DNA from: a bacterium
GTDB lineage: Bacteria > UBA8248 > JACPRG01 > G963555815
Length of the DNA stretch: 64,000 bases
Assembly: GCA_965218795.1 (NCBI GenBank)
Contig: OZ244653.1
Span: forward strand, 352,001-416,000
Direction of reading: 5' to 3'
Each line of letters starts with the position of its first letter. Position 1 is the first letter of the stretch. The position numbers were made by a program. Positions 30,001 through 33,000 of the stretch are shown in pieces.

Positions 30001-33000
30001 GATGCGGAGGTTTGCCGTCATGAGGAAATTTCCTCCAGGGGCCGATGCGCGGGAGAGCCGCGGAGGGGCGCCCCGTTATAGGGAGCCCTTGAGGGCGCCG
30101 TTGCCGGCCGAGTCGAGTATCGATAGGAATGCGGCCGAATCGCTCAGGTCATCGAAGAGGAAATCCGGTTCCGTCGCGCGCAGGGTCTCGGCATCGGCCC
30201 CTCCGGTGGCCACCGCTATGGTTTTTAGGCCGGCGGTCTTGCCGGCCTCGACGTCCCGGGGCGTATCTCCGATGAGCCAAATGGACGGCCTGGCTCCGTC
30301 GGGCAACAGGGCCATGCCGCGCCCCACCGCGGCTTGAACGATGTCCGAGCGTTCGACGGCGTCCGAGCCGAAACCGCCGAATGGGAATCGGTGATTCAGC
30401 TTGGCGCGCCCGAGTTTGGCCCGGGCGCCCTTTTCAATGTTGCCGGTGGCCAGCCCGACGAACGTATTCTTCCGAACCGAGAGCCGAGCAAGCAGACGGC
30501 CGACCCCCGGCAGCACCCGGAACCGGTCGGCTTCCTGCAGGGTGCCGCGAAGCTCCAGGAGGTAGAGACCATAAAACCTGGCCAGCTCAGCGGGCGTCGG
30601 AGGGATCTCCCTCTGCTTCCGGTACACCGTCTCCACGATGTCGGGGTCCGTCTTTCCGTGCAGAGAGACCCCGTTGAGGGAGTCTTCCCATGAATACGCC
30701 TTGGCGAAAGCGCGGTTCAGGGCCTCCCGGCCCGCACCGCCCGAATCGATCAGTGTGCCGTCGATGTCGAACAGGACGATTTGCATGGAATGGGGCATCT
30801 CGGCGGGGACTCTTCTGTCAGGGATCGAAAGGCGCGCCTTTTCCGAGGGAAACCGCAGATTCGTAAATGCAACGGCCGACAGCGACATCTTCCAAGGCCA
30901 TCCCCTGGGAACAGAAAAGGGTGATCTCATCATCGGATTCCCGGCCGGGCCTCTTGCCCGCGACGATTTCGCCCAAGTCCTCGACCTCTTCCCAGGAGAG
31001 CGCACCTTCCTCTACGGGGATGATGAGATCGCCGGCCTCGAGCCGGGCCACCTGCAGGGTGTCCACCGTCTTGCGGCTGCACCTCAGAACCGAGGCCGTG
31101 TCCATCTCGCGGCGGTTGTTCCAGTTGGACCCGACCGCATTGATGTGGGTTCCCGGCCGGATCCAGTCCGCCAGCACGACGGGATCCTTCGCCCGGGTCG
31201 CCGTGACGATGATGTCGGCGTCCCGTACACAGGCCTCCGCCGACGGTGCGGGCTCGACGGGAATCCCAAGGCTCGCTTCCATTTCCCGGCAGAAGGTCCG
31301 GCAGCGTCCTTCGTCACGCCCGAAGGCCAGGACCCGCTCAATCGGACGGACCTCTTTCAAGGCCGAGAGTTGGCCCCGCGCCTGCCACCCCGTGCCAATC
31401 ATACCGACATGACGGGAGTCTTTCCGCGCCAGGTAGCGGCTGGCCACGCCGCTGGCTGCACCGGTCCGCAACTGTCCCAGCTTGTTAGCCTGCATCACGG
31501 CCAGGGGAGAGCCGTCGTCATCGTAAAGGAGCACCGTGAAACGGACGCCTCCTTTCGAAGAGGTATACACCTTGACTCCCGTTGCTCCTCCCCCGAGTTT
31601 TCCCAGGTCAGCGGAGCCCGCGGCCATGAAGTGCAGGACGGATTCTCCTCCCATCACTCGTCTTCTGGGCTGGTTTTGGGCCATCCCCTCGCCAAACAGG
31701 CGGAAGCATTCCTCGACCGCCTCGACGGCCGTCTTCATATCGAGCAACTCAGTCACATCGGCTTCGGACAGGTATATAGCCATGAGAGAGCTCGGCTGAT
31801 CTTATCGAGGCAAAAAAGAAGCCGGGAACCCACTGCCTTCCCCGGCCATTTCGGAACACTGGAGGCGGCACCCGGATTCGAACCGGGGATCAAGGCTTTG
31901 CAGGCCTCTGCCTTACCACTTGGCTATGCCGCCCCTACGAATTTTTGACTTCCCAGGGCATCTGCTCCACGGGAAGCGTATTTCAATGGAGCGGGAAACG
32001 GGATTTGAACCCGCGACCCTCGCCTTGGCAAGGCGATGCTCTACCTCTGAGCTATTCCCGCCCGGTTCAATCAGAGAAACGATCGGCCTCCTGCCGACTG
32101 TTTTCACAAGGTAGTGTAACCACTTCACTCTGTCAATAGCCGAGAGGATTTCAAAAAATATCTTCATGAATCCCCAACAGAAAGATAGAGCGGGACACCT
32201 CCTAGCGTCCACGGTGAAACTCGGAAAAATCTGGATTTCAGAGAAGAAAGCCAAATAATGCGGAATTATACACTTGATCCAGCCGGCCACTACATGTGGG
32301 AAACCGGCCCTCGAATCCCCCGACCACAAGATGTAGCGGTTGACAAGCCAGCCCTCCCCGGCCGAAACTGAAGCCTCCTTTTTCACAATCGAATGGGTCA
32401 TGAAGAGCCTTCAGGGAAAGCTCTCTTTCGGGGCAGGAGTGCATGGCACTGGATGAGCTTCTCCATTACCTGGATTCGGAAGTATGGGGTAATGAAGTAT
32501 GGGCCATTGGGGTTATCATCGTCTCAATCTGGTTGTTCAAAGTGGCCGTGAAAGGAGAATGCGAGAAAGGGGACAGGATCCTGTTATTCTTCGGCGCTCT
32601 CACGATACTGGTTGGAGCCCTTTGGATATTTTCTTGGGATTGAAAGTTTGATGGAGCCGGGGGCGGGATTTGAACCCGCGACTCACCGGTTAGCAGTCGG
32701 CGCCCTTAAGCTAGGCTTGGGTACCCCGGCTCCGTCAATTATTTTGGACAAAACCTCAGAAAATCTTGACATTGGAACTGATTCAGATTAAGGTGGGATT
32801 GGTTTTGACGATCTCACCCTGCCTAAATCATTTTGAGTATGACACCCGCCTGGAGTTCCTGCTCCGGGCGTTGGTGTTTTTGAGAAAGAACACCATATCC
32901 AAGTGAAAATCATTATAATTCAACGACATGTTGTGGGTCAAGGGATCTTGAGATTGGCTACTCGAGATGCGGAGGCAGGGATTGATATTCAGATTTTGGA

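Follow-up and report, generated by a model that had tools for sequence, protein, structure and literature searches.

A tRNA gene in a small mobile cassette

In the window, by which we mean the whole stretch of 64,000 nucleotides that was analysed, we found an extra class-I tRNA gene inside a short mobile insertion cassette (hereafter cassette A). Two native tRNA genes, encoded on its strand, lie a short way beyond the cassette. The features of the locus are as follows.

31860-31933, minus strand: native tRNA-Cys(GCA), called by ARAGORN and by Rfam (68.7 bits)
31987-32061, minus strand: native tRNA-Gly(GCC), called by ARAGORN and by Rfam (73.3 bits)
32261-33104, no strand assigned: cassette A, a non-autonomous IS1595-family element (mobile insertion cassette) of 844 bp, recognised from contig junctions, inverted ends and G+C content
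32261-32339, plus strand: inverted end on the left, which starts CGGAATTATACAC and contains the internal repeats CCACTACATGT and CCACAAGATGTAG (inverted pairs; alignment of the ends of cassettes A, B and C, six in all)
32443-32643, plus strand: ORF66, a gene predicted to encode a small protein, oriented towards the tRNA gene (convergent; differences between runs; one homolog)
32652-32730, minus strand: the extra class-I tRNA gene, 79 nt (ARAGORN tRNA-Ser(gct); Rfam RF00005)
32847-32880, plus strand (that of ORF66): terminator-like hairpin with a T-run, past the tRNA gene in antisense, one found against 1.0 expected by chance
32941-32912, minus strand: sigma-70-like site TTGACC-18-TATAAT, ~180 nt upstream of the tRNA gene
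33028-33104, minus strand: right inverted end, whose reverse complement starts GGCTATTATACCCTTGACGCAG (inverted pairs; six-end alignment)
33130-33295, plus strand: what is left of the 3' part of a sigma-54 activator gene (Fis-type HTH; Pfam HTH_8, E 2.8e-16)

Since contigs of runs X5 and X10 join position 32260 to 33105 with 3172 other letters between them, the boundaries of cassette A are fixed, and in these runs the site occurs with and without the cassette. Its G+C content is 43-51% against ~60% around it, and it ends in IS1595-type terminal inverted repeats of ~70 nt, within which we read two inverted pairs (I1, 33 nt, 79%; I2, 18 nt, 94%). The left end agrees with the end of a tRNA-bearing element in genome G014 at 16 of 24 positions when ungapped (8 substitutions), or at 17 of 24 when one gap is set by hand, while the right end shares 16 of its 18 terminal bases (hand count) with the resident, transposase-bearing IS1595 element at genome positions 4625871-4628208. 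A genome-wide PF12762 search and a family scan of the cassette ORFs revealed no IS1595 transposase inside cassette A, which makes it a non-autonomous derivative, and no 8-bp target duplication could be read in its flanks. The gene left as a remnant at 33130-33295 is intact in the relative G006, where it encodes at least 453 aa, and its truncation at the cassette flank points to a deletion. The orthologous insertion site was not found in the six other genomes of the family, in which the only match was 50 nt to the regulator remnant (G006). The first-pass annotation had called the tRNA gene transposon-borne, and its carrier is indeed an element related to IS1595-family transposons, with the correction that it is a non-autonomous cassette.

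Besides the tRNA gene, the cassette holds ORF66, in which third codon positions account for 9 of the 13 listed differences between 32473 and 32595 (hand count; runs X5 and X6 differ at 20 positions in all over 32475-32658, of which 13 are listed). Its sole homolog is 81% identical over 73% of the query, and it matches no Pfam family. The TTGACC-18-TATAAT site, cited previously in favour of the gene, does exist and matches at 11 of 12 positions, but a scan found 1 such site where 1.1 were expected in shuffled sequence, so at this chance level it is no evidence alone. Its spacer contains a weak copy of the end repeat (family D1).

The tRNA gene was drawn by ARAGORN as a cloverleaf with anticodon GCU, U73 and an encoded CCA, and it scored 49.0 bits on Rfam RF00005 (gathering score 29; E 1.9e-7, or 3.6e-9 for the Rfam tRNA model over the whole genome). 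There are 49 Rfam tRNA matches over the cut-off in this genome, of which only one scores lower than the cassette A gene (35.9 bits) and one ties with that gene. Its shape is the ordinary 7/5 acceptor/T-stem form, with all 7 acceptor pairs in place in both the drawn cloverleaf and our parse, a T arm paired 5/5 with the loop UUCAAAU, U8 and A14 present, and a 5-nt variable loop (GAGUC). The anticodon loop, CUGCUAA, has U33, U36 and A37 in place. On the other hand, the D stem has 3 bp with A13/A22 unpaired, and the D loop, AGCCUAGCUUA, is 11 nt long, retains G15 and lacks a GG, so that G18-G19 is missing; among 40 reference Cys-type tRNAs, the second G of the D loop is invariant (40/40) and the first G is conserved to 90% or more. 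The anticodon stem is paired at 4 of 5 positions, with an A31-C39 mismatch. A 4-bp anticodon stem occurs in 5.6% of ~1.7 million bacterial tRNAs by the figure given in PMC13092985, and at that frequency such a stem does not prove a dead gene. The minimum-energy fold is a cloverleaf whose D arm forms an extended hairpin and whose anticodon loop has 9 nt (z = -2.48). The first-pass annotation had described a 79-nt class-I tRNA with CCA, GCU, U73 and a 5-nt variable loop and had listed the missing G18-G19 and the mismatch as its weak points, and on all of these our analysis agrees.

We considered whether the fold might resemble a tRNA by chance or be an artefact of annotation, since ARAGORN made several poor calls elsewhere in this genome without Rfam support (genome positions 32256, 256424, 2822551, 3898388, 4234820 and 4616140, with poor stems and no Rfam match over the cut-off). 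The Rfam scores, the canonical T arm, the complete acceptor stem and homologs with a Cys-type body in three other genomes rule this out for practical purposes. A further ARAGORN call, 84 nt long at genome position 3751553, reaches 35.9 bits on the Rfam tRNA model but has poor stems; like the six poor calls, it was left out of the family count.

A cysteine-type body and relatives on IS1595-type elements

The tRNA of cassette A and its element-borne relatives have in common G7-U8-A9, C12-A13-A14-G15, the T arm GGGUUCRAAUCCCGCC and U73-CCA. When metagenome and viral contigs were searched for tRNAs with this shared body, GCA was the anticodon in 79 of 82 and a serine anticodon appeared in none of the 82, among the matches listed (for the metagenome scan, 80 of at least 119 stretches). 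With a looser body pattern, viral contigs contained the loop CUGCAAA in 46 stretches, whereas the loops CUGCUAA, CUGGAAA and CUUGAAA were each found 0 times. The body of the cassette A tRNA is that of a tRNA-Cys, and the amino-acid identity, previously called open, is accordingly less open than was claimed. The native tRNA-Cys has the same A13/A22 arrangement. A Cys-type covariance model (R1) ranked the cassette A tRNA third in the genome with 71.4 bits (as compared with 49.0 bits on the general tRNA model), after the native tRNA-Cys (82.5) and tRNA-Gln (71.9), although R1 leans towards this gene, its training tRNAs having been selected by the T arm of the family itself. Taken by itself, the D arm is not cysteine-specific, since a search for the D-loop pattern in one genome per species returned 4 stretches, namely the relative with anticodon GGA, an unrelated tRNA-Lys and tRNA-Gln whose D arms are similar, and one non-tRNA; the exact D-arm stretch, at up to 3 mismatches, had no match in 51 genomes of the phylum but the cassette A gene itself. 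The gene therefore combines U73 and a Cys-type body with an anticodon, GCU, that is one base from GCA, and its body indicates one isotype while its anticodon indicates another.

In the 51 genomes of the phylum, only four tRNAs carry this Cys-type body, each of them an additional copy that lies within an IS1595-type element or next to one. They have the anticodons GCU (cassette A), GGA (G014), UGA (G026) and GCA (G025). The GGA gene had been taken for the only relative, making a family of two; the UGA and GCA genes now join it, together with an allele in run X10 whose acceptor and T arms are identical to those of the cassette A tRNA and which differs by 15 substitutions. This allele, rebuilt from 10 of the 15, was called 'Ala(cgc)' by ARAGORN, a call that we do not trust, and the reading of its anticodon is uncertain. 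G014, G025 and G026 each possess a native tRNA-Cys elsewhere, 92% identical to that of the present genome. Identity among the element-borne tRNAs is 64-76%, no higher than with unrelated metagenome tRNA-Cys genes (best matches 74-78%), so we give little weight to the compensatory acceptor changes relative to the GGA gene that had been offered as support. All four have U73 and acceptor stems paired 7/7 (by parse for three, from the drawing for G025), and the stem sequences differ among members. The cassette A tRNA is also identical in contigs of two further studies, from strains too close to be informative; at least half of the sampled words occur in runs of 3 studies, the same number of studies as reported before. 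A BLAST search of the tRNA against plasmid and phage collections gave no match.

Among six passenger tRNA-like genes, we count one as intact, the GGA gene of G014, whose 69.4 bits we reproduce. Three have one defect each: that of cassette A (the 31-39 mismatch, together with the missing GG), the UGA gene of G026 (49.2 bits; a T-stem mismatch or bulge) and the GCA gene of G025 (52.1 bits; a bulge in the anticodon stem). The remaining two, that of cassettes B and C and a 'Val' tRNA-like passenger of G026 with 3 acceptor mismatches, are clearly broken. The G026 element encodes an intact transposase (318 aa), is flanked by an 8/8 target duplication and has inverted ends identical at 24 of their first 26 bases (hand count); this transposon, which carries the UGA tRNA, looks recently active. 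For the G014 element, the 7/8 target duplication and the IS1595 transposase domains described earlier were both recovered, the latter split in two ORFs; its inverted ends, given earlier as 27 nt, were read here as 24 nt (83% match). In G025, a transposase remnant follows ~70 nt downstream of the tRNA gene and has the same orientation. Where the tRNA lies with respect to the transposase, and which way it points, varies among elements.

Cassettes B and C are more than 99% identical to each other and have their inverted ends in common with cassette A; cassette C is flanked by a 7-8 bp target duplication. As stated previously, both contain a decayed tRNA-like gene of 14.2 bits. In cassette B, this remnant starts four bases after the stop of a 103-aa ORF (ORF end at L001 3937, G1 at 3932). 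The 5' leader can pair with U73-CCA and the trailer at 7 of 8 positions in A and in B and at 10 consecutive positions in G014. We rejected this pairing as a family trait, since G026 and G025 do not show it and runs of 4-7 occur in native tRNAs of the genome as well. The pairing, the close spacing behind the ORF in cassette B and the same-strand placement upstream of the transposase remnant in G025 would suit a tRNA-shaped RNA that acts outside decoding, either as an element that processes or stabilises a transcript or as a decoy or replacement for anticodon-loop nucleases, and the D arm of cassette A is predicted by folding to be able to form a closed hairpin with no usual elbow. Such a role would leave the serine anticodons unexplained, and besides the patchy pairing, the inconsistent placement and direction of the tRNA with respect to the transposase and the lack of any toxin or nuclease gene seen in the cassettes speak against it. 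We regard it as improbable.

The genome has four canonical tRNA-Ser genes of 90-92 nt with a long arm, and the class-II tRNA-Ser(GCU) at genome positions 3484568-3484659 is drawn with that arm and with G73. These genes had been given as 92 nt long with G73, of which the G73 stands for the drawn GCU gene and the single length does not. The cassette A tRNA, which comes in addition to this set and has the non-serine body already ascribed to it, shares a serine anticodon with class-II tRNA-Ser and has neither the long arm nor G73. Bacterial SerRS recognises its tRNAs mainly by the long variable arm, and we count the lack of that arm against a reading in which the gene is a true serine tRNA of class-I shape, charged with serine and supplying the AT-rich serine codons of low-GC mobile DNA in a high-GC host. 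That reading would fit the G+C content of the tRNA-bearing elements (40-50% against 60-70% in their hosts), the presence of both serine boxes among the anticodons, as expected if the synthetase ignores the anticodon, and the UGA gene of G026, which has G1-C72, G2-C71 and A3-U70 like the host tRNA-Ser. However, the single SerRS of the genome is of the ordinary bacterial type (512 bits on TIGR00414), one family member retains GCA, and the acceptor stems differ among members, and we consider a serine-charged tRNA very improbable. A single CysRS is likewise present, matched over model positions 1-465 of 466, in line with the earlier statement that the genome has no extra CysRS or SerRS. In this genome, neither SepRS nor a second CysRS, nor a CysRS without the anticodon-binding part, was found, and no synthetase gene was found inside any of the tRNA-bearing elements.

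Proposed readings: redundant passenger or mistranslating tRNA

Our best reading, for which we judge the chances about balanced, is that the cassette A tRNA is a redundant passenger under relaxed constraint, whose charging, if there is any, would be weak and would proceed by CysRS via U73. An accessory tRNA of tRNA-Cys ancestry would have come to ride a non-autonomous IS1595-family cassette, and a change of A36 to U would have turned its anticodon from GCA to GCU, so that AGC and AGU, both serine codons, would be the ones it reads. Next to the tRNA-Cys and tRNA-Ser(GCU) that the host retains, the copy would be redundant, and under the relaxed constraint that redundancy brings, the D loop would have lost its G19 and the anticodon stem its closing pair. 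If the gene is transcribed and its product matured, charging by the single CysRS via U73 and the acceptor stem, without anticodon contact, would be the only plausible route, with at most low-level cysteine at AGY codons as the outcome. For cysteine identity, U73 and the GCA anticodon are described as major determinants, and U73 alone as enough in minihelices (PMC9976931). The sequence data show the tRNA gene with its structure, the cassette around it, its body type and its relatives, and from these we infer redundancy, decay and weak or absent charging; the odds of function had been put at somewhat under even, which is near our own estimate.

Several observations count against a passenger of this kind. 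All three element-borne members that have departed from GCA have serine anticodons, whereas an uncharged tRNA in pure neutral decay predicts no serine bias. Of the 9 anticodons that lie one base change from GCA, 2 are serine anticodons, and by our own arithmetic two independent hits have a chance of ~0.05. When the seed gene is left out, serine anticodons are found in 2 of 3 element-borne tRNAs against 0 of 82 (among the matches listed), for a Fisher p of 8e-4 that is overstated, given that the genes are kin and the groups small. The complete acceptor stems in all four genes, together with the recently active-looking carrier in G026, point the same way.

This repeated landing on serine anticodons keeps alive the idea that the tRNA belongs to a selected mobile mistranslation module, in which CysRS would charge it via U73 regardless of the anticodon and low-level entry of cysteine at serine codons would be tolerated or of use, with a family that spreads on IS1595 transposons covering both serine codon boxes. 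Serine anticodons in 3 of the 4 element-borne genes, against 0 of 82 in metagenome and viral contigs among the matches listed and none in the viral-contig scans, are consistent with it, as are U73 and perfect acceptor pairing in all four, an intact transposon that looks recently moved as one carrier (G026), and a decoding loop with U33, U36 and A37 in place. Mistranslating tRNAs of hybrid identity are known in bacteria, tRNAProX being an example described in PMC11415595. On the other hand, the anticodon is a major determinant for CysRS as described in PMC9976931, and the genome search found no second or anticodon-domain-less CysRS, nor the elements any synthetase. Stem defects in 3 of the 4 genes, the loss of G18-G19 in the cassette A copy and the wrecked tRNA genes of the sister cassettes also argue against selection, and the serine bias, which rests on only 2-3 independent events, could reflect the purging of other, harmful anticodon mutants. 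Altogether, we hold a selected module to be unlikely, though worth keeping in view, and we are slightly more doubtful still of its broader form, in which IS1595 transposons across the phylum would spread tRNAs of cysteine identity with serine anticodons (GCU, GGA and UGA), charged through the acceptor end alone, as a mobile, dose-limited mistranslation device.

Significance and comparison with known systems

A Cys-type body under a serine anticodon in three elements is an unusual mismatch. If these tRNAs are charged, they would constitute a natural system of Ser-to-Cys mistranslation that moves between genomes without a synthetase of its own, and the dependence of CysRS on the anticodon in vivo would become directly testable. 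If they are uncharged, the series from intact to wrecked genes would be a clean example of redundant tRNA decay on mobile DNA, and a warning for annotation pipelines, which will label such genes tRNA-Ser.

The IS1595 family is known from the ISfinder literature for passenger genes, and the tRNA-bearing elements resemble IS1595 insertion sequences and mobile insertion cassettes in their inverted ends, which start GGNNATTATA(T)AC, in their 8-bp target duplications (8/8 in G026, 7/8 in G014), in the Zn_ribbon_IS1595 and DDE_Tnp_IS1595 transposase of the autonomous members (G014, G026 and the resident element of this genome) and in holding passengers between their ends. They differ in that the passenger of cassette A and its relatives is a tRNA gene, and a literature search on tRNA, IS1595 and passenger returned no such report by title or abstract. 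Extra tRNAs on phages and plasmids are familiar, whereas we did not find them in print as passengers of small DDE transposons. The tRNA arrays of phages, plasmids and integrative elements likewise place extra tRNAs on mobile DNA whose G+C content differs from that of the host. One viral contig has 9 tRNAs, including a Cys-type body with GCA and class-II Ser genes of 87-93 nt, and a contig of a metagenome-assembled genome has 11 tRNAs in 3.5 kb. In such arrays body and anticodon normally agree, whereas in the cassette A tRNA, which travels on a small DDE transposon or cassette, they disagree.

Both selC-like tRNACys and the allo-tRNAs have 8/4 or 9/3 acceptor/T-stem shapes, unlike the 7/5 shape of the cassette A tRNA, and tRNAProX comes with a dedicated ProRS paralog, whereas no dedicated synthetase paralog was found for the cassette A tRNA in its genome or in the elements. 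As described in PMC11415595, selC-like tRNACys combines a tRNA-Sec-like structure and SelB use with a CysRS that lacks the anticodon-binding domain, a form of CysRS not found in the present genome; the likeness of these tRNAs and the allo-tRNAs to the cassette A gene is that they are rare bacterial tRNAs pairing cysteine identity with non-Cys reading. The same source describes tRNAProX (tRNAProA, ProN and ProT) in Streptomyces and Kitasatospora as joining the body of one isotype to the anticodon of another (PMC11415595). The cassette A tRNA, with its Cys marks (U73 and D arm) and Ser anticodon, is similarly hybrid and extra to the canonical set, but its carrier is a transposon, it has a single CysRS and no synthetase in its element to rely on, and it is a candidate mistranslator. 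Anticodon shifts and alloacceptor remolding in eukaryotic nuclear genomes and metazoan mitochondria, in which a duplicated tRNA acquires a mutated anticodon, offer a further parallel in that the isotype resembled differs from the codons read (PMC3923123, PMC4783518). In those cases a working isoacceptor is replaced or added and the synthetase is tolerant, whereas the ancestral synthetase of the cassette A tRNA, CysRS, reads the anticodon, so that the shift should cost charging.

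The tRNA genes of the window

The window was searched with ARAGORN and with the Rfam tRNA model (gathering score 29), and ARAGORN drew three tRNA genes, all on the minus strand:

tRNA genes of the window, with Rfam scores
31860-31933 (-): tRNA-Cys(GCA), 68.7 bits
31987-32061 (-): tRNA-Gly(GCC), 73.3 bits
32652-32730 (-): "tRNA-Ser(GCU)", hereafter the window tRNA, 49.0 bits

The window tRNA bears out the first-pass annotation of a class-I gene with anticodon GCU, a 5-nt variable loop, U73 and an encoded CCA. It is 79 nt long, its acceptor stem is fully paired (7/7), U8-A9 is present, and the T arm is perfect with UUCAAAU. 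The D stem pairs at three positions (C10-G25 to C12-G23) and leaves A13 and A22 unpaired, the D loop (AGCCUAGCUUA, 11 nt) has no GG pair, and the anticodon stem, which encloses the loop CUGCUAA, has four pairs and is open at A31-C39. Minimum-energy folding gives a cloverleaf (z = -2.48) whose D arm forms an extended hairpin and whose anticodon loop is widened to 9 nt. In the host genome, G000, 49 Rfam tRNA matches exceed the cut-off, and this gene ranks near the bottom of them. As had been annotated, it is extra to a canonical tRNA-Ser(GCU), which we recovered, drawn with G73, as one of four class-II tRNA-Ser genes of 90-92 nt. Two other tRNA-like sequences were seen in G000 (R1 is a Cys-type covariance model that we built):

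3898388-3898458 (-): 71 nt, good acceptor stem and T arm, CCA, nominal anticodon GGA; 27.5 bits with R1, no Rfam match
3751553-3751636 (+): "tRNA-Pro(tgg)", 84 nt, 35.9 Rfam bits

Cassette A and its sisters

The G+C content around the window tRNA is 43-51%, compared to ~60% for the genome. In contigs of two public sequencing runs, X5 and X10, position 32260 is joined to 33105 with 3172 other letters in between. These joins place the carrier, cassette A, at exactly 32261-33104 (844 bp) and imply a different, larger insert at this site in other strains; X5 contains both site forms. Cassette A is bounded by imperfect inverted repeats, ~70 nt long and containing internal repeats. At the tips, CGGAATTATACAC and GGCTATTATACCC agree with the ends of IS1595-family elements (beginning GGGGATTATATAC in the phylum genomes G014 and G026), and 16 of the 18 terminal bases are common to the resident IS1595 element of G000 (hand count from the alignment), whose 294-aa transposase has both family domains. 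Sister cassettes B (777 bp) and C (B plus an IS3-type insertion), both in G000, share only the ends with A (~83%). Since B and C are >99% identical and a 7-8 bp duplication flanks C, they have moved recently. A transposase is absent from all three cassettes, and no target duplication was found at cassette A. Its right flank (33130-33295, +) is the 3' remnant (Fis-type HTH tail) of a sigma-54 activator gene, which is cut off at the cassette and intact in the relative G006 (stretch L199). Together, the missing duplication and the truncated gene point to a deletion, at the time of the insertion or later. The description that fits cassette A best is that of a non-autonomous cassette of the IS1595 family.

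Two open reading frames lie in the cassettes:

32443-32643 (+): ORF66 in cassette A, 66 aa, hydrophobic, convergent with the window tRNA
L001 3937-4248 (-): ORF of 103 aa with two CxxC pairs in cassette B, also in C

In a diverged copy of ORF66 (X5 and a further run, X6), 9 of the 13 listed differences fall at third codon positions (hand count), and a large protein collection held a single homolog, 81% identical. The 103-aa ORF, which matches no Pfam family, stops four bases ahead of a decayed tRNA-like remnant. Elsewhere in G000, inverted ends of the GGAATGATACGCTTGAC type occur in at least seven pairs, spaced 160-420 bp, and look like a miniature inverted-repeat element family whose ends are related to the cassette ends:

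Paired ends of the GGAATGATACGCTTGAC type in G000
324104/324266, 1749000/1749372, 2553681/2553893, 3631788/3632151
4001232/4001394, 4241602/4241922, 4884328/4884738

Element-borne relatives and the tRNA body

A BLAST search of the window tRNA against 51 phylum genomes gave one near-full-length match (G014:C94:7078-7150, 78% identical, E 1.4e-7), a class-I tRNA of 76 nt with anticodon GGA and U73. This is the relative that had been annotated in an IS1595 element, and we recovered it at 69.4 bits; its carrier is a low-GC element of 2.9 kb with 24-nt inverted ends and a 7/8 target duplication, in which the IS1595 transposase is split into two ORFs and accompanied by a DUF1508 gene and an aspartyl-protease-like gene. 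The first-pass annotation held it to be the only relative; however, a phylum search with the transposase of this element and a tRNA scan of the 30 best loci returned two more. The G026 gene is a class-I tRNA of 77 nt with anticodon UGA and U73. It is found within a 4443-bp transposon, 31 nt from the right end, and this transposon has inverted ends (24 of the first 26 bases identical, hand count), a perfect 8-bp target duplication (ATAAAATA), an intact transposase of 318 aa and a second, broken tRNA-like gene. In G025, a 75-nt gene with the same body and anticodon GCA precedes a degenerate transposase by ~70 nt.

A pattern of features common to these genes occurs in exactly four places in the 51 genomes, and a scan of the phylum with a Cys-type covariance model (E <= 1e-14) yielded no further extras; of 23 other, second-tier hits, 20 were retrieved, every one a native tRNA-Asp or tRNA-Gln. 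Pattern and scan confirm the list of four as complete within the phylum. Since G014, G025 and G026 also have a native tRNA-Cys (each 92% identical to that of G000), their element-borne genes are extra copies. The G014 transposon appears to lie within an integrated island (stretch L029, 4727-7652). The following adjoin it:

two tandem ORFs (414 and 421 aa), tyrosine-integrase-like as judged from translations alone
a class-II tRNA-Ser(GCU)
on the opposite side, a 766-aa ORF, ParB-like as judged from its translation

The shared-feature pattern was also run, without an anticodon constraint, on viral and metagenome contigs (80 of 119 metagenome stretches listed). Among the matches listed, 79 of 82 have GCA, three have a shifted loop read as UGC by ARAGORN, and none has a serine anticodon; no IS1595 transposase was found at these 82 loci. 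With a looser body pattern, 46 viral stretches have the cysteine loop CUGCAAA, and the loops CUGCUAA, CUGGAAA and CUUGAAA were not found in the viral contigs.

R1 scores in bits (the model favours the family, its training set of 40 distinct GCA members having been picked through the family's own T arm)
Host native tRNA-Cys: 82.5
tRNA-Gln: 71.9
G014 relative: 71.8
Window tRNA: 71.4
G025 relative: 67.8
G026 relative: 65.9
Next host tRNA: 63.6
Remnant in cassette B: 24.3

In the host tRNA-Cys, too, the D stem has 3 bp and A13/A22. We conclude that the body of the window tRNA is of the tRNA-Cys type. From GCA, the anticodons GCU and GGA are one base away and UGA is two. Other odd genes were seen on metagenome contigs:

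L100 10228-10381 and L136 2064-2217: tandem tRNA pairs, one member with a Cys-type body and loop CUUGCAC, read UGC, its partner drawn by ARAGORN with the four-base anticodon AGCA
L121: Cys-type tRNA with loop CCUGCAA, the loop of the cassette B remnant

The four element-borne genes are 64-76% identical among themselves, while their best matches to unrelated metagenome tRNA-Cys genes reach 74-78%. The compensatory changes annotated at three acceptor pairs are present, but they do not show constraint after capture, because the four genes are no closer to one another than to these unrelated genes. The window and G014 tRNAs have similar anticodon stems and a rare D-loop start, AAGCC, a pattern found in only 4 stretches (one genome per species). 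An X10 contig (822 nt; window 32647-32737) has an allele that matches the window tRNA exactly in acceptor stem, T arm and flanks, with 15 substitutions and 8 gap positions in the D loop and anticodon arm; this anticodon arm is similar to the one in the G025 gene. The allele's anticodon is probably GCA (5 of the 15 substitutions fall outside the listing). Judging from joints with short sides (24 and 31 letters), its tRNA appears to be immediately next to the left end, with ORF66 missing. Cassettes A and B agree in the 8 bases preceding the tRNA and in those following CCA, which places both tRNAs in the same slot. Overall, the element-borne Cys-type tRNA genes form a pool whose members diverge, exchange parts and decay. 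Separately, a Spirochaetaceae MAG contig has a tRNA-Gln(UUG) with the D-arm sequence type of the G014 gene, within this array:

L028 1760-5282: 11 tRNA genes in 3.5 kb

Charging, activity and decay

G000 has one CysRS, in which the whole family model is covered, and one bacterial-type SerRS; no SepRS was found in this genome and no synthetase genes in the tRNA-bearing elements. PMC9976931 names U73 and the GCA anticodon as the main determinants of cysteine identity, with U73 by itself enough in minihelices. Given the single CysRS, the elements without a synthetase and the sufficiency of U73 in minihelices, the predicted route, and the sole one that we defend, would be weak cysteinylation. We do not defend serylation, for which the long arm is missing.

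All three non-GCA element-borne members read serine codons. Serine anticodons are 2 of the 9 one-step neighbours of GCA, and two independent events there have a chance of ~0.05; with the seed gene left out, 2/3 stand against 0/82 listed (Fisher p = 8e-4, which is overstated, the genes being kin and few). A bias to the mildest substitution (Ser to Cys) would come from positive selection or from the purging of more harmful anticodon mutants, and either would imply that the tRNAs were active in translation when the anticodon changed. For that reason we keep mistranslation by the element-borne tRNAs as a reading, although we consider it unlikely. Every copy keeps U73, acceptor stems are perfect throughout, the window tRNA has a canonical anticodon loop, and one carrier looks recently active; four-pair anticodon stems, which occur in 5.6% of bacterial tRNAs (PMC13092985), also count for activity. 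On the side of decay, the window tRNA lacks G19, which is invariant in 40 reference genes, and its 31-39 pair is gone, apparently through one U-to-C change when compared with G014. One bulge or mismatch is present in each of the G026 and G025 tRNAs, the tRNA-like genes of cassettes B and C are wrecks, as is the second gene of G026, and the promoter-like site annotated upstream of the window tRNA proved to be at chance level. The best single reading is that the window tRNA is a redundant passenger in slow decay.

The element-borne Cys-type tRNA with a serine anticodon is a real finding. In the literature searched, we found neither tRNA genes as IS or transposon passengers nor Cys-type tRNAs with serine anticodons, and supplements of large tRNA surveys may list some of each. 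Near cases are IS1595 elements with passenger genes and accessory tRNAs on mobile elements. Also near are hybrid-identity mistranslating tRNAs such as tRNAProX (PMC11415595) and tRNA anticodon shifts (PMC3923123, PMC4783518).
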